A stretch of 64,000 bases of DNA, from sequence record KX009778. The stretch is one strand, 5' to 3'. The position numbers and the translations under genes are program-made. This stretch comes from Escherichia phage UFV-AREG1. Numbering within the stretch: the first letter of the stretch is position 1; every line of letters starts with the position of its first letter. The notes under the pieces were generated by a model, which did not search any database, was not told where the DNA came from, and saw only the letters and a list, made by a program, of their open reading frames with translations. Positions 4,607-27,061 of this stretch are shown here, piece after piece.

Positions 4607-6118
4607 ATGACTGACATTAAAGTACATTTTTATGATTTTAGTCACGTGAGAATTGATTGTGAAGAAAGTACATTTCATGAACTCCGTGATTTCTTTAGCT
4701 TTGAAGCTGATGGGTATCGTTTTAATCCTCGCTTCAGATATGGCAACTGGGATGGGCGAATCCGTCTTTTAGATTATAATCGACTTCTTCCATTCGGCTT
4801 AGTCGGGCAAATTAAAAAGTTCTGTGATAACTTTGGCTATAAAGCCTGGATTGACCCGCAGATTAACGAAAAAGAAGAATTATCAAGAAAAGATTTTGAT
4901 GAATGGCTTTCTAAATTAGAAATCTATTCAGGAAATAAAAGAATTGAACCGCATTGGTATCAAAAAGATGCAGTGTTCGAAGGATTAGTTAATCGTCGTA
5001 GAATTCTTAATCTTCCAACATCCGCAGGTAAATCCTTAATTCAAGCTTTGCTTGCACGTTATTATTTGGAAAATTATGAAGGTAAAATTCTTATCATTGT
5101 TCCAACAACTGCTTTGACAACTCAGATGGCTGATGACTTTGTTGACTATCGTTTATTCAGTCATGCAATGATAAAGAAAATCGGTGGTGGAGCATCAAAA
5201 GATGATAAATATAAAAATGATGCACCAGTCGTTGTTGGTACATGGCAAACTGTAGTAAAACAACCAAAAGAATGGTTTTCCCAATTTGGTATGATGATGA
5301 ATGATGAATGCCATCTTGCTACAGGAAAAAGTATTTCATCTATCATATCAGGTTTAAATAACTGCATGTTCAAATTTGGTCTATCGGGTTCATTACGTGA
5401 TGGCAAAGCTAATATCATGCAGTATGTTGGAATGTTTGGTGAAATATTTAAGCCAGTAACGACTTCTAAATTAATGGAAGATGGACAAGTAACTGAGTTA
5501 AAAATTAATAGTATTTTTCTTCGTTATCCTGATGAGTTCACTACTAAATTAAAGGGAAAAACTTACCAAGAAGAAATAAAAATTATTACTGGGCTCAGTA
5601 AAAGAAATAAATGGATCGCTAAATTAGCTATTAAACTTGCGCAAAAAGATGAAAACGCTTTTGTCATGTTTAAGCATGTATCACATGGTAAAGCTATTTT
5701 CGATTTAATTAAAAATGAATACGATAAAGTTTATTACGTATCAGGGGAAGTTGATACCGAAACCCGTAATGTAATGAAAACATTAGCTGAAAACGGTAAA
5801 GGAATAATTATAGTAGCTAGTTATGGTGTATTTTCTACTGGTATTTCAGTTAAAAATCTGCATCACGTTGTTTTAGCGCACGGTGTTAAATCTAAAATTA
5901 TTGTATTGCAAACAATAGGTCGTGTATTACGTAAGCATGGTTCTAAGACAATAGCAACAGTCTGGGACCTCATAGATGACGCGGGCGTGGTTTCTAAATC
6001 AAAAACATCTTCTAAAAAATACTCGCATTTAAACTATCTTTTAAAACATGGACTTGATCGTATTCAGCGTTATGCTGATGAAAAGTTTAATTATGTGATG
6101 AAAGAGGTTAAACTTTGA
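4607..6118 (+). CDS. uvsW: UvsW SF2 DNA helicase
   Basis: 503 aa; Walker A TSAGKS and DECH box NDECH; T4 UvsW length. Confidence 0.95.
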   Translation: MTDIKVHFYDFSHVRIDCEESTFHELRDFFSFEADGYRFNPRFRYGNWDGRIRLLDYNRLLPFGLVGQIKKFCDNFGYKAWIDPQINEKEELSRKDFDEWLSKLEIYSGNKRIEPHWYQKDAVFEGLVNRRRILNLPTSAGKSLIQALLARYYLENYEGKILIIVPTTALTTQMADDFVDYRLFSHAMIKKIGGGASKDDKYKNDAPVVVGTWQTVVKQPKEWFSQFGMMMNDECHLATGKSISSIISGLNNCMFKFGLSGSLRDGKANIMQYVGMFGEIFKPVTTSKLMEDGQVTELKINSIFLRYPDEFTTKLKGKTYQEEIKIITGLSKRNKWIAKLAIKLAQKDENAFVMFKHVSHGKAIFDLIKNEYDKVYYVSGEVDTETRNVMKTLAENGKGIIIVASYGVFSTGISVKNLHHVVLAHGVKSKIIVLQTIGRVLRKHGSKTIATVWDLIDDAGVVSKSKTSSKKYSHLNYLLKHGLDRIQRYADEKFNYVMKEVKL

Positions 6119-6807
6119 ATTATAAATTAATATATGATAATTTAATTAATAGAGCCCAGAATCGGGCTCGCCTTAATGGATACACTGAAACTCATCATAT
6201 AATTCCTAGATGTATGGGTGGTACAGATGATAGGTGTAATTTAGTAGAACTAACAGCTGAAGAACATTTTATAGCCCATAAACTTTTAGCTAAAATTCAT
6301 CCAAATCATTACGGTATAATTAAAGCCGTTATATGTATGGGAATGAACTCAAAGACTCATGAAAGACACGTTAATAAATCTTACGCATGGGAACGTCGTA
6401 AAATGGCAGAACTTCAATCCGGTGAAGGTAATCCATTTTACGGAAAACACCATACGGAAGAACATAAACAATATATGTCAAAACTCATGAAAAGTCGTCC
6501 AATTACATGGGGAAATAAAATTAGTAAAACTAAAAGAATGAACCCAACAAAATGGACCGAAGAAGCTAAAAGATTACATTCAATCAATCAATCGGGTAAA
6601 AATAATGGCATGTATGGAAGGAAACATTCCGCTAAATCTATTCAGAAAATTAAAGATAACATGCCAGATAATTCAGGAGCTAATAACCCAGCTGCTAAAC
6701 CTATAGAAGTAAATGGTGTTAAATATAAATGTATGAAAGACGCTTCTAAAGCTGCTGGATTATCAATGTACAAACTAAGAATACTCAGAAAAACAGTTAA
6801 TTTATAA
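6115..6807 (+). CDS. HNH homing endonuclease (Mob-like) with NUMOD-type C-terminal DNA-binding motifs
   Basis: 230 aa; HNH motif HHIIPRCMGG...NLVELTAEEHFIAH; repeated G(K/R)xHSxE motifs; TTG start overlapping uvsW stop (TTGA) with RBS aagagg. Confidence 0.85.
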   Translation: MNYKLIYDNLINRAQNRARLNGYTETHHIIPRCMGGTDDRCNLVELTAEEHFIAHKLLAKIHPNHYGIIKAVICMGMNSKTHERHVNKSYAWERRKMAELQSGEGNPFYGKHHTEEHKQYMSKLMKSRPITWGNKISKTKRMNPTKWTEEAKRLHSINQSGKNNGMYGRKHSAKSIQKIKDNMPDNSGANNPAAKPIEVNGVKYKCMKDASKAAGLSMYKLRILRKTVNL

Positions 6808-15683: not shown

Positions 15684-15713
15684 ACTATAACACAATACGA
15701 GGGACTTGTAAAC
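15684..15713 (-). promoter_or_regulatory. Early sigma70-type promoter (GTTTACA-17-TATAGT)
   Basis: Minus-strand GTTTACA, 17-bp spacer, TATAGT upstream of ORF 15362..15652. Confidence 0.5.
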
Positions 15714-17770
15714 TACATTTTGAACTTTTTAGACATTCTGTTGATGTTAACCAAAGAAGCTAAGATTTGAGAAACTTCGCTTTCCTCTTCTTTTGATTCT
15801 TCTACAAGGAATTGATTAAATCCAGCCATTGGACGAACTTCACCAGTTTCCATCAGATGGTCGCCATCATATACTGATTCTTCTAATTGTTCAGAAGGAG
15901 GAACGATTGTACCTTCGATTAGATACTTATTATAAGCAGTTTCTTTCATCATGTACGTACTTACTTTATTAATCTTCAGTAAAATTCCACGTGGTAGAAT
16001 AACTTCAGCTTCTGATGGAAATCCTGATAAATGACCCGGAACGATAACTTTAACTCGTTCAGCTCCTTTAATTACCATACCTACATTAGTTTCAGCGTCT
16101 TCATTCGCATATGTAGAATGACTACCCATATGCATTAAATCTTCAGCATCAACTGAACCTTCTCCTTCACCAGAAAATACTGCTCCGGAATCATCTAAGG
16201 CCATATAATTTTTACCATATTCACCGAAGATATTTGGCTTGAGTGAAGTAGATACAAAGTTCTTGAAATAGAACATTTTATTTTCTATATTATGACGCAA
16301 AGTTTTAAAGGTAACTTCTTGCCCACGATAAAGAGTAGTTCCTGGAGGAAGAACTGAACCTTTAGAAAATGCAGAATCCAGCGTCTCAATATGTTTAATA
16401 GCTCGTTCCATATATTCTTCACGGGTAGAATCAGGTTTACCTAAAAGGAATGAGTTCATTTCAACATATGAATCTGCACAATAATCTTCAATTACATCAG
16501 ATTCAGCCTGAGTTAATCCTTTTGGAGTTACTTCAGTGCTTGCATATTCATATGCCTGAGCAGCAGATTCATCAATTAATTTATAAATTCCATTCATTAC
16601 AAATTGAATAATAGCTGTCTTTTCATCTGGTGTAGCTTTAGAACCTTTAACTAAATCATTGATAATTTTCTTAATAACATCAAAACTATTAGAAATATTA
16701 ATGTCAGCAAGATCGCTTAAAATTTTATCAGTTTTATAATCAAAGAATTCTTTATTCTTTAAATATTCTTGAGAACCTTGATATGTTATATCGCTCTGCA
16801 GCTTGATAGATGGATCGCGTAAACGTGCATGGGCCAATGCAATATGATTTCGGAAGCTTTCTAGTTCATAATCGCTAGATTTAAAACGAGAAGCACTTCT
16901 CATACCACCGATAGCTCCTTTGCTAAAGTTTGAACCAATCTGAATAACGCCAGAGTTCATTGATCCTTCTGCTTTATATACCGGAACTTTAGATTCAAAC
17001 TCTTGATATTTCTTAGCAGCGAAGCTATCACCCTGGAGTGAAGCGTCAACAGTAGAATATTGAGCTTGGGCTGCTAATCGACGACTGATTTTAGTTTTCT
17101 GAATAACAGCTTGATCCGTGCGCTTATCATTTTCTAAAGCAATAGAAGCAGCAACAGCAACAGCTTTAGGAACAGCATTACCTGTTTTAACGTCTACATA
17201 AACATCACCAACCTTTGATTCAACTTTTGTGAATAACTCGGTTGAAATAGGAGGTACACCTGGAATGTCTTCTAATTTGGCATTTTTACGGTAAACCATA
17301 ATATATGCGTACTTTTTATCATAATCCCAGATTTCCTTTAAAAGAACATATCGACCTGCTCCTTTAGTACGTACTAAACGGTCAGCAATAACTTGCATTT
17401 GCCGAGCAGCGCCATTTGTTTTACTTTTTAGTACGCGGAATAGGCATGCATCAATTTTATACTGTTTCATTGTTTGAAGAGCAGTATCAAAAACAGCATT
17501 AATGACGCCAATTGGATTTCCACCCAAGTTTTTAAGCTTAACTAATGATAGTTTCTCATTAACACCTATCATTACGATATGCATCATTTTGTCGCCTGGC
17601 TTAACGTTTTTATTCGTATCACCGCCAGAGGTGTATGTACAAAATCTAAATCCAGGAAGCACGCTTTCTTCACCTGCTTGAATAGCAAAAATTTGAGGTA
17701 TTTTATGCTTAGGATTTAAGTTAACAACCGGCGCCGAAGCGCCGTCAAATAATTCTGTAATAAGTTCCAT
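15713..17770 (-). CDS. Alt-family mono-ADP-ribosyltransferase paralogue (685 aa)
   Basis: N-terminus MELITELFD... homologous to adjacent alt; ART motifs YRGQ (Arg), FVSTSL (STS), EAEVILPRG (ExE). Confidence 0.85.
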   Translation of the reverse strand: MELITELFDGASAPVVNLNPKHKIPQIFAIQAGEESVLPGFRFCTYTSGGDTNKNVKPGDKMMHIVMIGVNEKLSLVKLKNLGGNPIGVINAVFDTALQTMKQYKIDACLFRVLKSKTNGAARQMQVIADRLVRTKGAGRYVLLKEIWDYDKKYAYIMVYRKNAKLEDIPGVPPISTELFTKVESKVGDVYVDVKTGNAVPKAVAVAASIALENDKRTDQAVIQKTKISRRLAAQAQYSTVDASLQGDSFAAKKYQEFESKVPVYKAEGSMNSGVIQIGSNFSKGAIGGMRSASRFKSSDYELESFRNHIALAHARLRDPSIKLQSDITYQGSQEYLKNKEFFDYKTDKILSDLADINISNSFDVIKKIINDLVKGSKATPDEKTAIIQFVMNGIYKLIDESAAQAYEYASTEVTPKGLTQAESDVIEDYCADSYVEMNSFLLGKPDSTREEYMERAIKHIETLDSAFSKGSVLPPGTTLYRGQEVTFKTLRHNIENKMFYFKNFVSTSLKPNIFGEYGKNYMALDDSGAVFSGEGEGSVDAEDLMHMGSHSTYANEDAETNVGMVIKGAERVKVIVPGHLSGFPSEAEVILPRGILLKINKVSTYMMKETAYNKYLIEGTIVPPSEQLEESVYDGDHLMETGEVRPMAGFNQFLVEESKEEESEVSQILASLVNINRMSKKFKM

Positions 17771-17773
17771 GAT

Positions 17774-19867
17774 TTATCCTTGAACGAACTTGTAAGGCAT
17801 GTTTGTAATATCTATGCAAGACGCAATAATTCCAAGAGATGATTCTACTTTCTGTTTAATATTTGATGAAACAAATGATGCAAAGTCAACTCTGTCTTCT
17901 ATTTCAATATCACCTGTCATTGCAACCAATTCACCAGTTTCCATTAAATGGTCTCCATCATAGATTACCGATTCGGTGAGCTCTTCCGTGGTCATAACTT
18001 CAGCTTGAATGAGTTTTGTATTATTAGATGTTGTTCCGTCATTATTAGAAGCATCGATTATTTTATTAACTTTGACCATCAATCCACGCGGTAGAATAAC
18101 TTCAGCTTCTGTTGCTATTCCGAGACTTCCTGGATATACAACATTAACTTTATGAGCTCCATCAATTGCCCATCCTATTTGAACTTTAACATATTCAGGA
18201 TTTTCTTTATACGCTCTTATTTCGTTTGGATTAATAGTTATTCCTTCTTCATTTTTATCAACTGTTAATTCATTGCGAGCTCCTGGTTCTAAAAGACCAA
18301 TACCAGCATGTGTGATTCCAAAACGTCCAAAAATGATAGGAGTTAAAGAAGTAGATACAAAATTTCTGAAGTAGAACACTTTATTTTTAACTAACGCTTC
18401 ATATATAGGAGCAGTCATACTTTGAGCACGATAAACTGTAATGCCTTCTGGTATACGGTCACCATTTTCAAAAGCTGAATCTAAGTTATTTATAGCAGAT
18501 TCAATTTCTTTTTCACTCATTACATCATATCGTTCTGGATTGTAACGACCTAAAAGAAGATTATTGATGTCAGTATATCCTGAACCGCAATATTCTCTAA
18601 TGCCACGCTTTTGTGATGGAGTATATTTAGAACCATCGCGGGCAATAGTAATATCAATCATTGGACCAGCACCAATTCCAGAAAAACTGTAAATCATTCG
18701 TTTGAGGAATTTAGTTTTTGCTGCGTTCCAGGAATTTTTAGTTATTTCTTCCCAGACTTCATCTGGTTGTCCTTTACGATTTTTATTATGATTAGCAAGC
18801 CATTTATCTTTATAATCTTCAAAGAATTGATTTACAGCTGCTGCGTATTTCTCTAAACATTTTATTGAAGTAGTTGGTTCATTTTTAATTGCATTAAAAA
18901 TTACTTCTTTAATTTTTTCTGAAACTTCACCGACTTGACTCATTGGAAAGAATTTATAATCATAGTGAAGTTCATCTGCCGTTCCTTCAGCAATAATTTT
19001 TGCTGCCTTTGTTTTAGAAGCTAATGAATTAATTCCAATTTTCATTTCTTCTGCTTCGGGAATTAAAGGTGCAGTAGCTGGTTTATTAAAATTAGCTGCT
19101 GTAGATTCATACTTCTGGAATAATTCACTTTCAAATCTAGAAGATTCCAATGACTGACTTTGTGCAATTGCTCTACGGGAAATTTTAACTTTAACGATTA
19201 CAGCTTGGTCAGAACGTTTATCATTTTCTTGCGCAATAGATGCTGCAATTGCTTCATTTTTAGTTACTTGAGCTCCAGTATCTTTATTGATATAAACATC
19301 ACCGACCTTCGATTCAACTTTAGTAAAGAGTTCAGTGCTAATTTCTGGAACTCCTGGAATGTCTTCTAGTGATACATTTTTGCGATGTATAAGAATATAT
19401 GCATACTTTTTATCATAATCCCAGAGTTCCTTAAGAAGGACGTATCTGCCACCTGAACGACTACGGATAAGTCTATCAGCAATAACTTGAATTTGTCGAG
19501 CTTGGCCAGCAGTTTTAGACTTAAGAATACGAAGCATACAAGCATCAATTTTATACTGACGCATTGTTTGCATTGCAACAGTAAAAACTGAATTGATATA
19601 ATTAATTGGGCTTGGCCCAAGACCTTTCAATTTAGCAATTGAACCTTTAGCAGTTAATGTAAAAGGAACAATATGCATCATTTTATCGCCCATCTTTAAA
19701 TCACGATTAGTATCACCTCCAGATGTATAGGTACATAAACGAAAGCCTGGTTGTTCAATTGCGTCATCGACATGAACTGAAAAAATTTGTGGTATCTTCT
19801 TCTTTGGATTTAAGTTTGTAATCGGAAGAGTAGTATCTTCGTCAAATAATTCTGTAATAAGTTCCAT
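17774..19867 (-). CDS. alt: Alt ADP-ribosyltransferase (packaged, injected ART; 697 aa)
   Basis: ART motifs YRAQ, FVSTSL, EAEVILPRG; adjacent to gene 30 as in T4; late promoter upstream. Confidence 0.85.
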   Translation of the reverse strand: MELITELFDEDTTLPITNLNPKKKIPQIFSVHVDDAIEQPGFRLCTYTSGGDTNRDLKMGDKMMHIVPFTLTAKGSIAKLKGLGPSPINYINSVFTVAMQTMRQYKIDACMLRILKSKTAGQARQIQVIADRLIRSRSGGRYVLLKELWDYDKKYAYILIHRKNVSLEDIPGVPEISTELFTKVESKVGDVYINKDTGAQVTKNEAIAASIAQENDKRSDQAVIVKVKISRRAIAQSQSLESSRFESELFQKYESTAANFNKPATAPLIPEAEEMKIGINSLASKTKAAKIIAEGTADELHYDYKFFPMSQVGEVSEKIKEVIFNAIKNEPTTSIKCLEKYAAAVNQFFEDYKDKWLANHNKNRKGQPDEVWEEITKNSWNAAKTKFLKRMIYSFSGIGAGPMIDITIARDGSKYTPSQKRGIREYCGSGYTDINNLLLGRYNPERYDVMSEKEIESAINNLDSAFENGDRIPEGITVYRAQSMTAPIYEALVKNKVFYFRNFVSTSLTPIIFGRFGITHAGIGLLEPGARNELTVDKNEEGITINPNEIRAYKENPEYVKVQIGWAIDGAHKVNVVYPGSLGIATEAEVILPRGLMVKVNKIIDASNNDGTTSNNTKLIQAEVMTTEELTESVIYDGDHLMETGELVAMTGDIEIEDRVDFASFVSSNIKQKVESSLGIIASCIDITNMPYKFVQG

Positions 19868-19890
19868 GTTATCCTCTCTAGTGTTTATTC

Positions 19891-19898
19891 TATTTATA
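19891..19898 (-). promoter_or_regulatory. Late promoter TATAAATA upstream of alt
   Basis: Minus-strand TATAAATA about 23 nt before alt ATG; RBS gagagg. Confidence 0.5.
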
Positions 19899-19903
19899 AA
19901 ATT

Positions 19904-19921
19904 AAAGGCCCGAAGGCCTTT
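19904..19921 (-). terminator. Hairpin terminator downstream of the 61-aa ORF
   Basis: aaaggcc-cgaa-ggccttt. Confidence 0.45.
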
Positions 19922-19923
19922 AA

Positions 19924-20109
19924 TTAATAGAGAGCTAAAAGAGTACGATATACTTCAAACTTTGGACCTTTTTCATATGGATCAAATCTTTCCGTGAATT
20001 CATCATATGCTAGTTTATCTGGGAATTCAAGAATAACCTGCGATACCGCAGTGGAAACATCTCCACCTTCTTTTTGAGCCACGACAATTGTTTCTAAGTA
20101 AGCTTTCAT
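19924..20109 (-). CDS. Hypothetical small protein
   Basis: 61-aa ORF; start overlaps gene 30 stop (ATGA coupling). Confidence 0.5.
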   Translation of the reverse strand: MKAYLETIVVAQKEGGDVSTAVSQVILEFPDKLAYDEFTERFDPYEKGPKFEVYRTLLALY

Positions 20110-21569
20110 AAACCAGTTACCTCATGAAAATCGCCAAATACATCTTCGAACGTATTAGCTTTAGTTTTATCTTCACGTAAACGAATTGCAATTGGAAGAA
20201 ATAGCTTAACGTAATCAGTACGTCCATCTAATTTTACCCAGCCGTTGCATTCGCACTCTAGAATTTTTCCAATATAATAATTTTGGTTTTCCATAATGCG
20301 AGTACGATCAAGTTCATGCGATTTTATACCGGCTTTATCTTTTAAGCCTGAACCAGCATTTACTTTAATTTTTCCACACTCTGATTCAAGAATGAAACCA
20401 CCTGCTTTAGTAGGGTCTTTACGGTGAGGATAAATTCCTACAATTTTTAAATCAACATCAATTACTTCTTTAAATTTATAAAGATTTTTTGAACGAGCAT
20501 TTTCCCATAATCCATCGATATTTTTGAGAATAATACCTTCAAGACCTTGGTCAATATACTTTTTGTAAATAACCTTAGCTTCATCTAGGTTATTTACTAC
20601 TTGGTTTTCAATTAAAATTACTTTATCATAGCCTGATGTCATTTGTTCTAGTTTAGAAAAACGTACATCATATTTTAAACGAAATGCTGGAAGACCATAT
20701 ATTTCTACTAATGGAACATAGTCCCAGACCTGAAACTTCATGCATTGTGCTTCTTTTTCAGAAATGGTTCCCTTTAAAGATTTATTAGCGATTCCATTAG
20801 AAGTAGTACGTGATTCAGCTACTTCGGCGAATTCTTTAGCTTTACTAATTTCAGGATAAGCATCAAAAAGAAAATCTAGGCCTTCTGGCTCCTTTTTAAC
20901 TTGCTCATGGTATACCAATTCGCCATCAATTAACACACCTTCTGGATGAATCTGGCGAGCTTCTGCAGTCATTTTGATTAACTCTTCTTTGAGAAGGTCT
21001 AATCCTAGATATTCATTACCAGCTCGTGATAAAAGACGAACATCATCTAATTCATCACCTCTGACTTCGGCAAAGCACCGAGCTCCATCAGCTTTTAATT
21101 GGGCAAAGGCTGGAAATTTGATATTCTTATTAATGCCTTTTTCATCATAAGAACTTGCCAGCATTTGAGGTTGTTCAGGAATTAAACCTGGCCAAACTTT
21201 GTTTGCAATAGATACTGATGCACCGCATTCAAGGTCTCGCATCATCACCCGACGCAAAACTTCAACATCATCTTTTTTACCGTCAGCAATATATCCAGTC
21301 AATTCCTCAATTGCCGCATTTCCAGTCAATTTCCGAGTAGCTAATGTGAATTCAATGAAGTCAAGCATATCGGTAAGAGTCAACATTCCAAAACTCTGGG
21401 TAGCAATACCAGGTTTAGGCCATTTCTTGATATAATACTGTAACCCACGAGAATAAGTTAGACGATATACTCGTTTAAGCAATTCATTATCTTTATTCTT
21501 TTCAAGAATTGCTTGCTTCTGCTTAGTTGAACCAATAGATGCTATTTCATTCAGAATTTTAAGAATCAT
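20106..21569 (-). CDS. 30: ATP-dependent DNA ligase gp30
   Basis: 487 aa; adenylation motif I KADGAR. Confidence 0.95.
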   Translation of the reverse strand: MILKILNEIASIGSTKQKQAILEKNKDNELLKRVYRLTYSRGLQYYIKKWPKPGIATQSFGMLTLTDMLDFIEFTLATRKLTGNAAIEELTGYIADGKKDDVEVLRRVMMRDLECGASVSIANKVWPGLIPEQPQMLASSYDEKGINKNIKFPAFAQLKADGARCFAEVRGDELDDVRLLSRAGNEYLGLDLLKEELIKMTAEARQIHPEGVLIDGELVYHEQVKKEPEGLDFLFDAYPEISKAKEFAEVAESRTTSNGIANKSLKGTISEKEAQCMKFQVWDYVPLVEIYGLPAFRLKYDVRFSKLEQMTSGYDKVILIENQVVNNLDEAKVIYKKYIDQGLEGIILKNIDGLWENARSKNLYKFKEVIDVDLKIVGIYPHRKDPTKAGGFILESECGKIKVNAGSGLKDKAGIKSHELDRTRIMENQNYYIGKILECECNGWVKLDGRTDYVKLFLPIAIRLREDKTKANTFEDVFGDFHEVTGL

Positions 21570-21835
21570 TGTTCATCCTTTAGAGTTTGGTTTACAGCTC
21601 TATTATAAATCAATTCATCATTAAGCTCAGTCAAAGACCTGTGGTACGTGGTTCTAACTTTATTTCCTTGCATCCAGTGCTTGACGTAAATGAAACCTTG
21701 CTCTACACATTTTTTAAAAATTCGTTCGTCTTTTTGAGCTCGGAATTCTGGATTGCATCTAAAAAATTGATTTACGTGACCGTAATCACGTGTAGTATTA
21801 CCTTCATTTTCATAAATAGTGTGAACGACAAACAT
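21566..21835 (-). CDS. Hypothetical protein, 30.1-like
   Basis: 89-aa ORF coupled to gene 30. Confidence 0.6.
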   Translation of the reverse strand: MFVVHTIYENEGNTTRDYGHVNQFFRCNPEFRAQKDERIFKKCVEQGFIYVKHWMQGNKVRTTYHRSLTELNDELIYNRAVNQTLKDEQ

Positions 21836-22671
21836 TAGAATGCTCCTTGGAAAATATTATCACCACTAGTAGGTCTATTATACAAATACTCTATGCCACC
21901 GGGTTTAATATAGTTCCATGTCTGAAACGGATGTGTATAATATGGATGATATGGATTATAAGGATTAAATCCAGGAGTTCTCCAGGTAGTATTCCAACGA
22001 AAAGAATCGTTTTTAATCATCTTTTCAATTACATCTTTTATAGCTTTTTCACTATCAAAACTTTCTTTATTTTCCTTCGATGGAAAAAGCTTATTCTCTA
22101 CATCATTCCATGTATAAACTCGCTGTGCAGTTTTTGGAATACTATCACGCTCCCCTCGAGCCATCCAATAAACAGGAACATTTAATATTTCACTCGCGTG
22201 ATCGCAGTGGTGAGCGAGATCGTCAATATAACAAATTACGTTATATTTCTCTTTTGCCTTTTTGAACAACTCTTCTTTTGAAGAATCATGACCACACATC
22301 AATACTTCTGAAAAGGCACCAGGAAAAAGAGCATTCAAATTAAATTGACGATTCAGCAGAGCGTCAATAGAATCACCCAATGCTGTAACAGCTACAAAAT
22401 TATAATCTTCTTTTAATTTGTTAATTACGCACAGAGCATCTTTATATGGAGACAAGTAACGAATAAAATCTGAACGATTGTATTTTTCAATTAACTTGAC
22501 GCCAAGTTCTTCATCACAATTAAAGAGTTTACCTGGAGAAATAAATTTCTCATCTTGGATCATTTTTAAAATATGTTCCAACGGAAGATTATATTTCTGA
22601 GCAAAATAAGGAAGACCTGATTGCCAGCTTAAACATACTCCATCAATATCAGTTAAAATAGTAGGCTTCAT
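21835..22671 (-). CDS. HAD-superfamily phosphatase-like protein, 30.2-like
   Basis: 278 aa; N-terminal DxDG motif LTDIDGV. Confidence 0.6.
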   Translation of the reverse strand: MKPTILTDIDGVCLSWQSGLPYFAQKYNLPLEHILKMIQDEKFISPGKLFNCDEELGVKLIEKYNRSDFIRYLSPYKDALCVINKLKEDYNFVAVTALGDSIDALLNRQFNLNALFPGAFSEVLMCGHDSSKEELFKKAKEKYNVICYIDDLAHHCDHASEILNVPVYWMARGERDSIPKTAQRVYTWNDVENKLFPSKENKESFDSEKAIKDVIEKMIKNDSFRWNTTWRTPGFNPYNPYHPYYTHPFQTWNYIKPGGIEYLYNRPTSGDNIFQGAF

Positions 22672-23132
22672 AAAGAGTCTCTTAATAAGTTTAACACATC
22701 AATAAATTCAGCTTCGGTTAGTATTGTATCATCTTTTGTTAGACCACTAGCCATGCTGTGCTTCAAAATTTTTCCTTTAGAGGCTTGTAAGGCATCACGA
22801 AACCCCTTGTTTTGGATCGCGGCTTCAAAATATGCATTTGTGTATAATTCTTTCCACGCCGGGGAGTATCTTGAAAACGGAACTCCAAGCCAAAAGAGGG
22901 TCCCACGGTCCTGAGCTCTAGCATAAGACCTTCCAGCTTGTTGGGCGGCAAGCCCGGATAACCCAAATATACGACGTTGTTGTTCAACATTTTTCACCTT
23001 ACACCCTTGGAGGAATCCTTCAAGACCTCCAAATTGAATACCATCCATAACGAAAGGCCATTGGGCGAAATTACTTAATGCACATGATGGCCATCTAAAA
23101 TTACTTCTAATCTCTAACTCAGACATTTTCAA
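22668..23132 (-). CDS. NADAR (YbiA-like) domain protein, 30.3-like
   Basis: 154 aa; conserved SNF element (CALSNFAQWPF) and overall YbiA-like composition. Confidence 0.6.
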   Translation of the reverse strand: MKMSELEIRSNFRWPSCALSNFAQWPFVMDGIQFGGLEGFLQGCKVKNVEQQRRIFGLSGLAAQQAGRSYARAQDRGTLFWLGVPFSRYSPAWKELYTNAYFEAAIQNKGFRDALQASKGKILKHSMASGLTKDDTILTEAEFIDVLNLLRDSL

Positions 23133-23325
23133 TGCTTATAATTTCAACATCAGCCCAATGACCATAGCAAGGAAGACGAAATTCAACTGGCCAGTTAGGG
23201 TCCTTTTCTAATATAATAGACTCAACTTGTGGTTCTTCATGTTCATCAGTATATGGATTTTTATATGTTACTTTATATGTGACCTTAATGTACTGAATTC
23301 CAAAAATCTTATTAATTATATTCAT
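23119..23325 (-). CDS. Hypothetical protein
   Basis: 68-aa ORF in 30.x operon. Confidence 0.45.
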   Translation of the reverse strand: MNIINKIFGIQYIKVTYKVTYKNPYTDEHEEPQVESIILEKDPNWPVEFRLPCYGHWADVEIISIENV

Positions 23326-23519
23326 ACTAATTCCTTTAATCCGTAGATAGGAGATAATTCATCACCCATACGAAGGTCTTCATTTCCATCTACCCAGGAA
23401 ACAATATAAGCCTCTTTTATTTGAATACCACTCCATTTAAATGGAGGTAGAACCTTAGAAATTAATCCAGGTATACCAACTCCCTTTAATTCAACAGTTT
23501 GACCTAAAAAGAATTTCAT
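23322..23519 (-). CDS. Hypothetical protein
   Basis: 65-aa ORF in 30.x operon. Confidence 0.45.
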   Translation of the reverse strand: MKFFLGQTVELKGVGIPGLISKVLPPFKWSGIQIKEAYIVSWVDGNEDLRMGDELSPIYGLKELV

Positions 23520-23806
23520 TAGAACCTCATCTGAAAACCATGCGATTTAACATTACCACCACCAATGTCAGAAATATTAATTTCACGCGCAATTGAAGGG
23601 TCAATGTCAATTTCGCGATTGAGTTTAGTGATAGCTAAAGTATCACGCCCATTTACTGTACGGAATTCTAAAGGACAAACCACATCAACGTAATTTTTAA
23701 TCGATTCACTAGTAGGCTGCAAATGAGCAGGAAGGTCTTTAGGCGCCTTTGAGAAAACAACTTCACAGAAATTTTTGCGGGTATCAAAATAAGTAGTCAT
23801 AAACAT
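23519..23806 (-). CDS. Hypothetical protein
   Basis: 95-aa ORF in 30.x operon. Confidence 0.5.
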   Translation of the reverse strand: MFMTTYFDTRKNFCEVVFSKAPKDLPAHLQPTSESIKNYVDVVCPLEFRTVNGRDTLAITKLNREIDIDPSIAREINISDIGGGNVKSHGFQMRF

Positions 23807-23847
23807 AATATTTTCCTCAGTAAGGGGCCGAAGCCCCTCATTTTATT

Positions 23848-24213
23848 TTAAATATCAAATTCGTTAAGAACTACATCAAAGATTGCTTCAAGATGCTCAG
23901 GTTTAGCTCTGTTACTCAGAATATGACGAATCCAAGTTTTAACTAGAAGCTTGCGATTAGCACCATTCCAGCAAGGATGAGTCCCTAAATCGCGTTGACG
24001 GAAATCATCATCTAATGCGATTTTGAAGTTGGAACCTTCCATCGTGATGGAAACTGTAATACCATTTTCAAATCGCATATAAACGTAGTTAGGAGTCATA
24101 TACTGTTCAATTTCGCATACTGATCCATTTTGATGTTTCCAAAGGCAGATGGTATCAATAGAACCTGCAATACCATTAGAAACATATTTACGTTCAAAGT
24201 TGATGTAGTTCAT
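23848..24213 (-). CDS. Hypothetical protein
   Basis: 121-aa ORF. Confidence 0.5.
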   Translation of the reverse strand: MNYINFERKYVSNGIAGSIDTICLWKHQNGSVCEIEQYMTPNYVYMRFENGITVSITMEGSNFKIALDDDFRQRDLGTHPCWNGANRKLLVKTWIRHILSNRAKPEHLEAIFDVVLNEFDI

Positions 24214-24281
24214 TTTTATTCTCCGAGATGTTTAATTGCGGTACAGGTATATAATATCATATCCTGTACCAAAGTAAACAA

Positions 24282-24614
24282 TTATTTTACTACTTTCCAA
24301 TGCTTCATGTCAAGTTTACCAACTTTTTTCATCTTCTCAATTAAGCGTTCGGCACGTTGGCGAGCTGTAACATAATGCCATTCGCCTAATTCATTTTGTT
24401 CAATTTTTCCAACGATTACTGTATTCAATTCATAAATCCAACCAGTAAAGAAATTATGAACTTGAATTGTAAAGGTGAAATCTGTTCCCATACCTTCTGT
24501 TGTTTCTACTTCAATAATATCACCTTCAACTGCCATTAAGAACCACATAGTTTCATCATATTTACCATTGAAGCATTTAGTTTTAACTGTAGCGTTCAGA
24601 TTAATCGTTTTCAT
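24282..24614 (-). CDS. Hypothetical protein, 30.8-like
   Basis: 110-aa ORF with early promoter and RBS aaggag. Confidence 0.55.
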   Translation of the reverse strand: MKTINLNATVKTKCFNGKYDETMWFLMAVEGDIIEVETTEGMGTDFTFTIQVHNFFTGWIYELNTVIVGKIEQNELGEWHYVTARQRAERLIEKMKKVGKLDMKHWKVVK

Positions 24615-24641
24615 TTTATTCTCCTTTGTTTGTGTAAGATA

Positions 24642-24671
24642 ATACTATCACAAAGGAACTATACTGTAAAC
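24642..24671 (-). promoter_or_regulatory. Early promoter (GTTTACA-17-TAGTAT)
   Basis: Minus-strand -35/-10 with 17-bp spacer upstream of ORF 24282..24614. Confidence 0.5.
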
Positions 24672-24690
24672 AACTTTATGCAATCTTTGG

Positions 24691-24720
24691 AAAATAAAAA
24701 AGGACTCCCGAAGGAGTCCT
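24691..24720 (-). terminator. Rho-independent terminator after 30.9-like ORF
   Basis: Hairpin ggactcc-cgaa-ggagtcc followed by T-run on minus strand. Confidence 0.6.
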
Positions 24721-24724
24721 CAAC

Positions 24725-24943
24725 TTATGCTTTCTGCTTACCAAAACGAGAAGCATCATCTCGAAGAACCGCACGTGCTCGGCGCATGATCTTCTCAACA
24801 GTTTGATTGATACGAGAGTTCGACCCACGCTTGTAGCCAGCGCGTTTAGAATCACCAACTTTCTTTTCAACTGCTTTCTTTGCTTTAACTTGTTTTGCCA
24901 TTATAAATTCTCTTTTAAATGAAAATGCAGGACTTATTGGCAT
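24725..24943 (-). CDS. Small basic protein, 30.9-like
   Basis: 72 aa, Lys/Arg-rich. Confidence 0.55.
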   Translation of the reverse strand: MPISPAFSFKREFIMAKQVKAKKAVEKKVGDSKRAGYKRGSNSRINQTVEKIMRRARAVLRDDASRFGKQKA

Positions 24944-25146
24944 TGCCTGCGCAAGCCCTCAAGGGGAACATAGGTTTTTGGGTATTTAACGACCAGGATA
25001 ACCATAAACCCGTCATCATTCACATTCAAGAGGTACACCATAAAACTGCCGGGGTCTTAAAACTATAATGATTCGCAAATCATTAATCAGACAGTTCGAT
25101 GGCTCCTCGATTTTAGCTCACACTAAGGCAGTGAATCTCCAATAAA

Positions 25147-25395
25147 TTACTTCAATGTTACCACAAAGTGACGAACTGCTTTTCGTGCAGCAGAAGCCAG
25201 AGGCTTAGCATACTTAAGTTCATCTTTTTCCTGAAGCTCAGCGGCTAATGCAGTTTGAGCAGGATTCAGATGTTTGAAATAACGCAAGATTTCAAGAGCT
25301 TCGGCTTCAACATCAATAGATGCGCCATAGTTTTCGTGACCATTATTCCATGCGTTTCGTTGCAGTTCAAGAGCGTGTTGTAATTGTTTAATCAT
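25147..25395 (-). CDS. rIII: Lysis inhibition accessory protein rIII
   Basis: 82 aa; T4 RIII length; synteny before gene 31. Confidence 0.85.
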   Translation of the reverse strand: MIKQLQHALELQRNAWNNGHENYGASIDVEAEALEILRYFKHLNPAQTALAAELQEKDELKYAKPLASAARKAVRHFVVTLK

Positions 25396-25542
25396 TTAAA
25401 AATTCTCGTTAGAGATTAAAACCCGGTAGTCACGTTCTTCTGAATTTCATCTTCTTTCGACAGATCTCTCAGTTGTAGACTACCACATAGAATTGTTCGG
25501 TTAACTTATTATTCCGACACCCAATTCATATTATTATTTATA

Positions 25543-25878
25543 TCACTTATAAAGACACGGAATAGCTTTATAGTGACAGGTAACAAATTTTTGTTTAATT
25601 TCCTTTGGCTGCTTAAGACCCAGAGCTACAAAAGGATGCGGAACGTTTCGAATTTGACCAACTGGAAGAGAAGTCAAATCACCAACTTCGCAGAAACCTT
25701 CAGGAACATCAGGACCAACAGAGTGAACTACACACAGTTCAGGAACTTCACCTTGGACACGTTTACCAATAATAAGTCCTGATTCTGTAACTTCTTCATC
25801 ACCGGCTTGCGCAGGTTCAGAAACTAAAATAACATATTCACCGACAGCACGAATTGGTAGCTGTTGTACTTCAGACAT
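25543..25878 (-). CDS. 31: Co-chaperonin gp31 (GroES analogue)
   Basis: 111 aa; T4 gp31 length and sequence. Confidence 0.9.
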
Positions 25879-25934
25879 CGTTTTTCCTTTTTGTTAACAG
25901 ATGAATTAATAATAACAAATAATTCTTAAAGCAT

Positions 25935-26243
25935 TTATTTACCAATAAATTGAAGCAAATGCTCAACTTTCATACCATTAACGGAAATCAATTTGTCAAT
26001 AGAAAAACCTCGCCATGCACCAAGCTCAACATCAAATACTGGAATCATGTCAGTAGATTCTTTCCGAGTAGATTCAGTCAATTTACCAGTTTGCATGGTT
26101 GGCATAAAGTCTGCATCACGAGTACCTTTCATAGTACGAATAGTACCATCAGACTTTTCAAAAACTACGTTTGAAATACCCATGGACAATTTAGTTTTCA
26201 AAATTTCACGAATTGCTACTTTCTGTTCAGTTGTCAGTTTCAT
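25935..26243 (-). CDS. Hypothetical protein, 31.1-like
   Basis: 102-aa ORF. Confidence 0.55.
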   Translation of the reverse strand: MKLTTEQKVAIREILKTKLSMGISNVVFEKSDGTIRTMKGTRDADFMPTMQTGKLTESTRKESTDMIPVFDVELGAWRGFSIDKLISVNGMKVEHLLQFIGK

Positions 26244-26480
26244 TTATTTACCTATTACAGTTTTAATATGAGTTGTTCCACGTTCTTTAAGAGTGGAAAG
26301 CAACTTTTGGCATTTTTCTAAATCAGATTTCCAACTATACGGCCTATCAATACAAACCCATTCTGACTTATAGTACTGTTTCCATTTAGAGAAAAAATAT
26401 TTCTTATACTCTACAGCAAATGAAATGTTCTCGTTAGAATAAGAACTAATTGCTGTGAGCTGTACCAAACGAAATTTCAT
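26244..26480 (-). CDS. Hypothetical protein, 31.2-like
   Basis: 78-aa ORF. Confidence 0.5.
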   Translation of the reverse strand: MKFRLVQLTAISSYSNENISFAVEYKKYFFSKWKQYYKSEWVCIDRPYSWKSDLEKCQKLLSTLKERGTTHIKTVIGK

Positions 26481-27061
26481 TATTCACCACAGAATTCGTT
26501 GATATTTTCCCAATTTAACTTATTCAAGTTTTTCTTAGGAACATTAAACACTTCAATACCCGCATTTCGCAGAATATCATCCCAGCCAGGTTTATTTTTA
26601 TCGTATGTTTCGCAATAAACCAACTTTTTAATTCCAGATTGAGCTATCGCTTTTGCACAATCTGGGCAAGGAGAAAGTGTTACATACATAGTAGCGCCTT
26701 CAATAGAAGAACCATTTCGCGCAGCAAACAAAATTGCATTTAGTTCAGCATGAATTTCATTTTTAGATGACCATTTCGAGTGGGCGCTGCGGTGTTCTTT
26801 CGCCAAGACAAAACGATCAGTTGAACCAAATGATACACATTCAGGCTTATGGCCTTGGATGATAGTATGTTTAGGTTTATTCAGCAACCAACCTTGCTCA
26901 GCGGCATAATCACAACAGTTCACACCACCAGCAGGTGAACCGTTATATCCGGTAGAAATAATACGTCCATTCTTTTCAATTACTGCTCCTACCTTCCAGG
27001 AGCAACATTTTGATTCTTGTGATACTAAATATGCAATTTGAAGTACTGTACTCGCTTTCAT
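26480..27061 (-). CDS. cd: dCMP deaminase
   Basis: 193 aa; zinc-binding HAE (HAELNAI) and PCxxC (PCPDCAKAI) motifs. Confidence 0.92.
   Translation of the reverse strand: MKASTVLQIAYLVSQESKCCSWKVGAVIEKNGRIISTGYNGSPAGGVNCCDYAAEQGWLLNKPKHTIIQGHKPECVSFGSTDRFVLAKEHRSAHSKWSSKNEIHAELNAILFAARNGSSIEGATMYVTLSPCPDCAKAIAQSGIKKLVYCETYDKNKPGWDDILRNAGIEVFNVPKKNLNKLNWENINEFCGE

Follow-up and report, generated by a model that had tools for sequence, protein, structure and literature searches.

The gene found at positions 22668 to 23126 on the minus strand of the 64,000-nucleotide stretch of Escherichia phage UFV-AREG1 (KX009778; the window) is, from its sequence, orthologous to T4 gene 30.3, the phage itself being T4-like (Tequatrovirus). 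Its product is best explained as AdfN (gp30.3), a stand-alone NADAR-fold ADP-ribosylglycohydrolase that belongs to the pre-replicative 30.8-to-30 cluster and counters DarTG1, a reading to which a probability of about 93% can be given. The function of AdfN is already known, since it was published and named for the 99%-identical protein of phage T4.

An earlier note on this DNA had described a 154-aa open reading frame at 22668-23132. This frame is indeed present and uninterrupted on the minus strand, both in the list of open reading frames and in the sequence as read, with 154 amino acids counted from a TTG. An ATG is located at 23126..23124, two codons inside the maximal frame, in overlap with the stop of gene 30.4, which lies upstream (ATGTCTGA). 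The T4 annotation of gene 30.3 gives 459 nt and 152 aa, and the published residue numbers E36 and K43 fit the 152-aa form of gp30.3. On the basis of this overlap, annotation and numbering, the true coding sequence is therefore probably 22668..23126, with its start at the ATG at 23126 and the TTG at 23132 lying 6 nt too far upstream. The reading frames at this locus are the following:

22668..23126, minus strand: coding sequence of adfN (T4 gene 30.3 orthologue), 152 aa plus stop, putative NADAR-superfamily DNA ADP-ribosylglycohydrolase of the phage gp30.3 subfamily.
23127..23132, minus strand: TTG AAA, the two extra codons of the maximal frame (sequence read, T4 annotation, published numbering), probably untranslated in view of the annotated start, the ATG at 23126.
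22763..22990, minus strand: 30.3', an internal +1-frame ORF of 75 aa inside adfN, open here as in T4.

The match to the Pfam family PF08010, the identity with T4 gp30.3 and a bias towards synonymous changes (9 of the 11 nucleotide differences between adfN and T4 30.3) confirm that the adfN frame is real and not due to chance. The 30.3' frame was considered as the source of a second product and rejected: all five of the nucleotide differences between the window and T4 that fall within this frame are silent in 30.3 and non-synonymous in 30.3'. No similar sequence was found in this frame in one 58%-identical homologue, and nothing points to selection acting on 30.3' at the protein level. The G+C content of adfN (22668..23126) reaches 41%, versus 35.6% across the whole window, and is thus mildly atypical; this composition would fit the published idea of an acquisition from a bacterial DarG1-type antitoxin.

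The protein encoded in the window is identical to T4 gp30.3 at 150 of 152 residues (99%), the two substitutions being V120I and I125M. It matches Pfam PF08010 (Phage_30_3) with E=5.3e-70 and 234.1 bits for a cut-off of 36, over profile positions 1-138 of 138, and PHROG 652 with E=2e-51. The DNA around adfN (21500..23600) shares ~98% identity with the genomes of many Tequatrovirus members, phages of Escherichia, Shigella and Yersinia, and a 100%-identical protein is encoded by Escherichia phage UoN_LDJ77_1. A database search retrieved gp30.3 homologues in 1509 phage records, with Klebsiella phage Roth16 (PQ657790.1) and PV287714.1 as examples. Among the matches listed (40 of 1509), nearly all homologues are labelled 'hypothetical protein' and one record carries the label 'anti-CBASS protein acb1'; no NCBIfam model matches gp30.3. 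Among these listed matches and in NCBIfam, database annotation therefore trails the published function of the family.

More distant relatives can also be observed. A 38%-identical gp30.3-family NADAR is encoded at 6001..6468 of locus L002, on a jumbo-phage-like ENA contig of 308 kb (NODE_6); loci L003-L005 are related to it, the longest contig in this cluster measuring 424 kb. Within 5 kb of the L002 gene are found a NUDIX hydrolase and a Thg1-like 3'-5' nucleotidyltransferase, most of the neighbours having no Pfam hit. The presence of this gene in a jumbo-phage-like contig indicates that the family reaches beyond the classical T4-like genomes.

The earlier note had assigned the protein to the NADAR/YbiA group. 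No direct match to the Pfam NADAR family (PF08719) was obtained with the window protein at E<=1, and membership of the NADAR superfamily therefore rests on fold and profile evidence. The profile of the gp30.3 family matches E. coli YbiA (PDB 2b3w) over the SNF...E...Q segment, with E=0.005. One 38%-identical homologue, P0083, carries hits to PF08010 and PF08719 together, and several gp30.3 homologues are labelled YbiA/DUF1768 at JGI. The structure prediction, which the note had named as able to refute its assignment, returned a NADAR fold. The AlphaFold2 model of the window protein, computed with the homologue alignment as input, has a mean pLDDT of 93.4 and a pTM of 0.88. A Foldseek search of the full PDB with this model ranked 2b3w (YbiA) first, 8bau (P. 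nicotianae NADAR with ADP-ribose) second and 8bat (G. lovleyi NADAR) third, the best match after these three having E > 1. A confident model together with three NADAR structures at the top of the Foldseek ranking confirms the NADAR fold of the protein as predicted by modelling.

The residues expected in an active NADAR enzyme were located by using an alignment of 66 homologues, down to ~35% identity, and the 152-aa numbering. The corresponding elements of the gene are:

23067..23075, minus strand: codons of S18-N19-F20, the 'SNF' element of the N-terminal NADAR motif (ALSNFA), invariant, codons read in the sequence.
23019..23021, minus strand: codon of E36, putative catalytic or ADP-ribose-contacting glutamate, invariant, with data on the T4 E36A mutant.
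22998..23000, minus strand: codon of K43, putative ADP-ribose-contacting lysine, at least 90% conserved, with data on the T4 K43A mutant.
22758..22760, minus strand: codon of H123, the last-strand histidine, invariant, predicted strand E120-122/HS.
22671..22715, minus strand: C-terminal helix, residues 138-152, helix H138-151 in the model, sequence identical to T4.

In this alignment, P13, A16-L17-S18-N19-F20, E36-G37-F38, Q40, H123 and T134/L136/T137 do not vary, and at least 90% of the 66 homologues keep K43. The SNF element that had drawn attention to this frame is thus S18-N19-F20, and its counterpart in the alignment with E. coli YbiA (2b3w) is FSNFA. The glutamate and the lysine of the N-terminal E-G-F-x-Q-x-x-K motif, which contact ADP-ribose, are present as E36 and K43, and their equivalence to residues of PnNADAR has been stated (PMC11825919). 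A histidine in the last strand marks the phage gp30.3 subfamily, this position being occupied by Glu in the YbiA family and by Asp in the BC4488 family (PMC11125620, PMC11825919); the window protein carries this subfamily-defining histidine as H123.

This position bears directly on the proposal that AdfN is a housekeeping N-glycosidase of YbiA type, with riboflavin-pathway intermediates as substrates. Even if E. coli YbiA is the match obtained at the sequence level in the PDB, the last-strand Glu of its family is replaced by an invariant His, the gp30.3 cluster is phylogenetically closest to the DarG1-type NADARs, and the phenotype is specific to defence. The probability left to a housekeeping role is next to negligible.

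The two substitutions that separate the window protein from T4 gp30.3, V120I and I125M, are conservative and close to the catalytic His, and I125M shifts the protein towards the family consensus HSMG in the 66-homologue alignment. By analogy, we infer that the allele of this phage would behave like T4 AdfN. The C-terminal helix is intact, and gene position 411 carries no frameshift. It is there that RB69 has a T insertion, which truncates the helix and leaves this phage sensitive to DarTG1 (PMC11825919); the RB69-like truncated AdfN has reduced activity and is impaired in vivo (PMC11825919).

The biology of AdfN was worked out on T4 gene 30.3 from 2023 to 2025. Proteins of the gp30.3 type were described as a phage NADAR group, and the purified T4 protein was shown to hydrolyse guanosine-ADP-ribose and not thymidine-ADP-ribose (PMC11125620, Toxins 2024). 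In the same study, T4 gp30.3 failed to protect uninfected E. coli against DarT1. By recombination with RB69, Johannesman et al. (Nat Commun 2025, PMC11825919) traced the resistance of T2 and T4 against DarTG1 to the 3' portion of gene 30.3, and they renamed this gene adfN, for anti-DarT factor NADAR. Mutants of T4 and T2 deleted for adfN form no plaques on DarTG1 hosts, and RB69 is rescued by ectopic adfN (PMC11825919). T4 AdfN does not bind DarT1; the purified enzyme strips ADP-ribose from DarT1-modified DNA and the E36A variant does not, while in vivo E36A weakens the rescue and K43A rescues only partially (PMC11825919). In an independent transposon-sequencing screen, insertions in 30.3/adfN were lost specifically on DarTG1, and adfN is dispensable on K-12 (preprint 10.1101/2025.11.20.689424). 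The literature thus presents AdfN(T4) as necessary and sufficient against DarTG1 in T-even infection and inactive against DarTG2. The suggestion that the product hydrolyses ADP-ribose and counters DNA ADP-ribosylating toxins is therefore supported by experiments on a 99%-identical protein; what had been offered as an inference is in fact an established role with a gene name of its own.

On the basis of these data, the following sequence of events can be proposed for the phage studied here. During infection of a DarTG1 cell, the DarT1 toxin would ADP-ribosylate guanines in single-stranded phage DNA, and replication would be blocked. AdfN would hydrolyse the guanine-ADP-ribose linkage by means of E36, K43 and the subfamily-specific H123, unmodified DNA would be restored, and replication could proceed. 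AdfN would neither bind DarT1 nor take off the thymine-linked ADP-ribose made by DarT2.

The range of action of the T4 enzyme calls for a qualification. AdfN(T4) rescues non-T-even phages weakly according to the literature, and its full activity is limited to T-even infections, for which a T-even factor was postulated (PMC11825919). With no rescue of uninfected cells and a weak one in other phages, the picture of an enzyme sufficient by itself is incomplete. The same poor antitoxin performance outside T-even infection could suggest that AdfN acts mainly on soluble ADP-ribose derivatives, for example host immune signals or RNA-repair by-products, the action against DarT1 being a side activity. 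The vicinity of NUDIX and Thg1 genes near the distant homologue in the jumbo-phage-like contig points in this direction as well. The loss of adfN, however, causes a complete and specific loss of plaquing on DarTG1, purified AdfN acts directly on modified DNA, and no soluble substrate has been demonstrated, which makes this explanation very improbable.

A two-component anti-DarT module, in which the T-even factor needed by AdfN(T4) would be encoded in the same gene string (gp30.2, directly downstream, or one of the small upstream proteins gp30.4-gp30.6), appears improbable too. Pairing between gp30.3 and gp30.2 holds within T4-like synteny. The gp30.2 neighbour is not kept beside the one 38%-identical homologue of the 308-kb jumbo-phage-like contig, the downstream gene there being unrelated (BLASTP E=11). 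A pairing that goes with T4-like synteny provides no evidence of functional coupling, and the text of the transposon screen names only 30.3 as lost on DarTG1 (10.1101/2025.11.20.689424).

The reading of the gene as adfN, encoding a DNA ADP-ribosylglycohydrolase, can also be examined in its genomic context. The gene order is the same as in T4: alt, alt.1, 30 (DNA ligase), 30.1, 30.2, 30.3, 30.4 ... 30.9, rIII, 31, 31.1, 31.2, cd. The features surrounding adfN are:

15713..17770, minus strand: Alt-type ADP-ribosyltransferase, downstream copy, 685 aa (PF03496).
17774..19867, minus strand: Alt-type ADP-ribosyltransferase, upstream copy, 697 aa (PF03496).
20106..21569, minus strand: DNA ligase, gene 30 (PF01068).
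20106..23806, minus strand: translationally coupled string 30.6-30.5-30.4-30.3-30.2-30.1-30, neighbours overlapping by 1 to 8 nt, in the T4 order.
21835..22671, minus strand: gene 30.2, predicted HAD-fold 5'(3')-deoxyribonucleotidase-like protein (motifs, profile, AlphaFold2, Foldseek).
23823..23838: G+C-rich hairpin with a UUCG-type tetraloop, GGGGCTTCGGCCCC, between 30.7 and 30.6, without a T-run.
24251..24278, minus strand: early-promoter-like site TTTACT-16-TATTAT, TG-extended, upstream of 30.7 (consensus scan, pattern match only).
24642..24670, minus strand: early-promoter-like site GTTTACA-17-TAGTAT, TG-extended, upstream of 30.8 (consensus scan, pattern match only).
24700..24721, minus strand: G+C-rich hairpin with a UUCG-type tetraloop, GAGGACTCCTTCGGGAGTCCTT, followed by a T-run, after 30.9 (terminator-like).

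The operon with DNA ligase announced by the earlier note is recovered here. Indeed, the genes from 30.6 to alt.1 overlap or abut, with computed gaps of -1 to -8 nt, which fits a single transcription unit including the ligase gene. The site at 24251..24278 is, by pattern match, the nearest candidate promoter for the string containing adfN. The terminator-like hairpin at 24721..24700 just precedes the early-promoter-like site at 24642..24670, and the two UUCG-type hairpins, which flank the 30.8/30.7 genes, may represent a transcript boundary or stabilising elements. It can be inferred from these promoter-like patterns and from one published contextual statement, the early co-expression of T4-like NADARs with ADP-ribosyltransferases (ARTs) noted in 2022, that adfN would be expressed early, before or during replication.

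The neighbour described as a HAD-type phosphatase corresponds to gp30.2. Pfam itself gives no HAD hit for this protein, NCBIfam returns only a sub-threshold thiamine-diphosphokinase match, and a single-sequence search of the PDB produces matches at E=1 only; an alignment profile and an AlphaFold2 model are thus needed to recognise the HAD fold. The protein carries the four HAD motifs (D8-x-D10-G11, T96, K132 and D150-D151), which in the family alignment are invariant with the exception of T96, present in at least 90% of the sequences. The family profile matches the mouse 5'(3')-deoxyribonucleotidase (2jao) with E=0.0097. The core of the AlphaFold2 model has a pLDDT above 90, and a Foldseek search with this model retrieves HAD hydrolases and deoxyribonucleotidases with E ~1e-7. 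A HAD fold close to the 5'(3')-deoxyribonucleotidases can therefore be predicted for gp30.2. Pro, Tyr, Asn and Trp abound in the ~55-70 C-terminal residues of this protein (RWNTTWRTPGFNPYNPYHPYYTHPFQTWNYIKPGG...); residues 225-278 (about 21835..21999) are predicted to be disordered in the AlphaFold2 model, and in many homologues of 196-220 aa this tail varies or is missing.

The nearness of ADP-ribosyltransferases is a further point raised before, and two Alt-type genes are effectively present. The products of these tandem full-length genes share 42% identity. The orthologue of T4 alt is the upstream copy (17774..19867), with an identity of only 70%, in the midst of flanking DNA that matches other Tequatroviruses at ~98%. 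In the downstream copy, the initial 116 residues show 95-98% identity with T4 alt.-1 and alt.-2. Full-length and with a start matching these two genes, the downstream copy shows that the phage keeps intact a paralogue surviving in T4 only as two fragments.

Alt and Mod enzymes modify arginines of proteins, and ModB attaches RNA chains. With two Alt-type genes ~3 kb from adfN and a reported co-expression of T4-like NADARs with ARTs, AdfN might be seen as a self-regulating eraser of the ADP-ribose marks deposited by the phage itself (two Alt paralogues, ModA/ModB). Every NADAR tested so far is nevertheless specific for guanine-ADP-ribose, which differs from those Alt/Mod targets, and the lack of adfN is tolerated on K-12. 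In addition, no ART is found within 6 kb of the distant gp30.3 homologue in the jumbo-phage-like contig, and the proximity between adfN and the Alt genes is accounted for by the conserved T4 gene order. There is therefore no evidence that AdfN acts on Alt products: the neighbourhood stands as described, the functional link to the adjacent Alt genes was rejected as unsupported, and a self-eraser must be regarded as extremely improbable.

This gene illustrates how a lytic phage can carry an orphan enzyme of bacterial antitoxin type which erases the DNA modification made by a defence system. With AdfN retained as the identity of its product, the practical value of the present analysis lies in annotation: the name adfN can confidently be given to the window gene, and resistance to DarTG1 is predicted for the phage.

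The closest known counterpart is AdfN of T4. The gene has the same length, the same position between 30.4 and 30.2 and the same overlapping 30.3' frame, and the catalytic residues and the C-terminal helix are common to both proteins. The window protein differs by V120I and I125M, and it is surrounded by the genome of a different Tequatrovirus, in which the Alt orthologue is only 70% identical to that of T4 and the second Alt paralogue is intact.

The DarG1 antitoxins of the DarTG1 systems (BC4488 family), for instance the Geobacter lovleyi NADAR (PDB 8bat), possess an N-terminal extension which is absent in AdfN (152 aa), and an Asp in the last strand where AdfN has a His. AdfN works like DarG1; in contrast to it, however, AdfN is an orphan counter-defence gene of phage with no adjacent DarT, none being present among the ORFs examined on either side of adfN (15713..27061), and the T4 protein cannot replace DarG1 in uninfected cells. 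YbiA (2b3w) and the Phytophthora nicotianae NADAR (8bau) are only 18-21% identical to AdfN. The YbiA family has a Glu in place of H123 and, unlike AdfN, YbiA has a housekeeping role connected with riboflavin metabolism and is encoded in a LexA-controlled operon.

Orphan phage NADARs neutralising DarTG1, as AdfN(T4) does, are represented by AdfN(Bas32) and AdfN(Bas60), which are proteins of T5-like and Vequintavirinae phages. AdfN(Bas32) and AdfN(Bas60) belong to other NADAR clades than the T4 type and result from independent acquisitions; they are active in uninfected cells and for unrelated phages, whereas the T4-type enzyme works fully only in T-even infections. Finally, the T-even phages possess other anti-DarTG factors, AdfM (Tk.4 macrodomain) and AdfA (gp61.2). 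AdfM is a macrodomain protein countering DarTG2, for which removal of the thymidine ADP-ribose made by DarT2 is a proposal. AdfA binds DarT1 and blocks it directly, whereas AdfN erases the modification.
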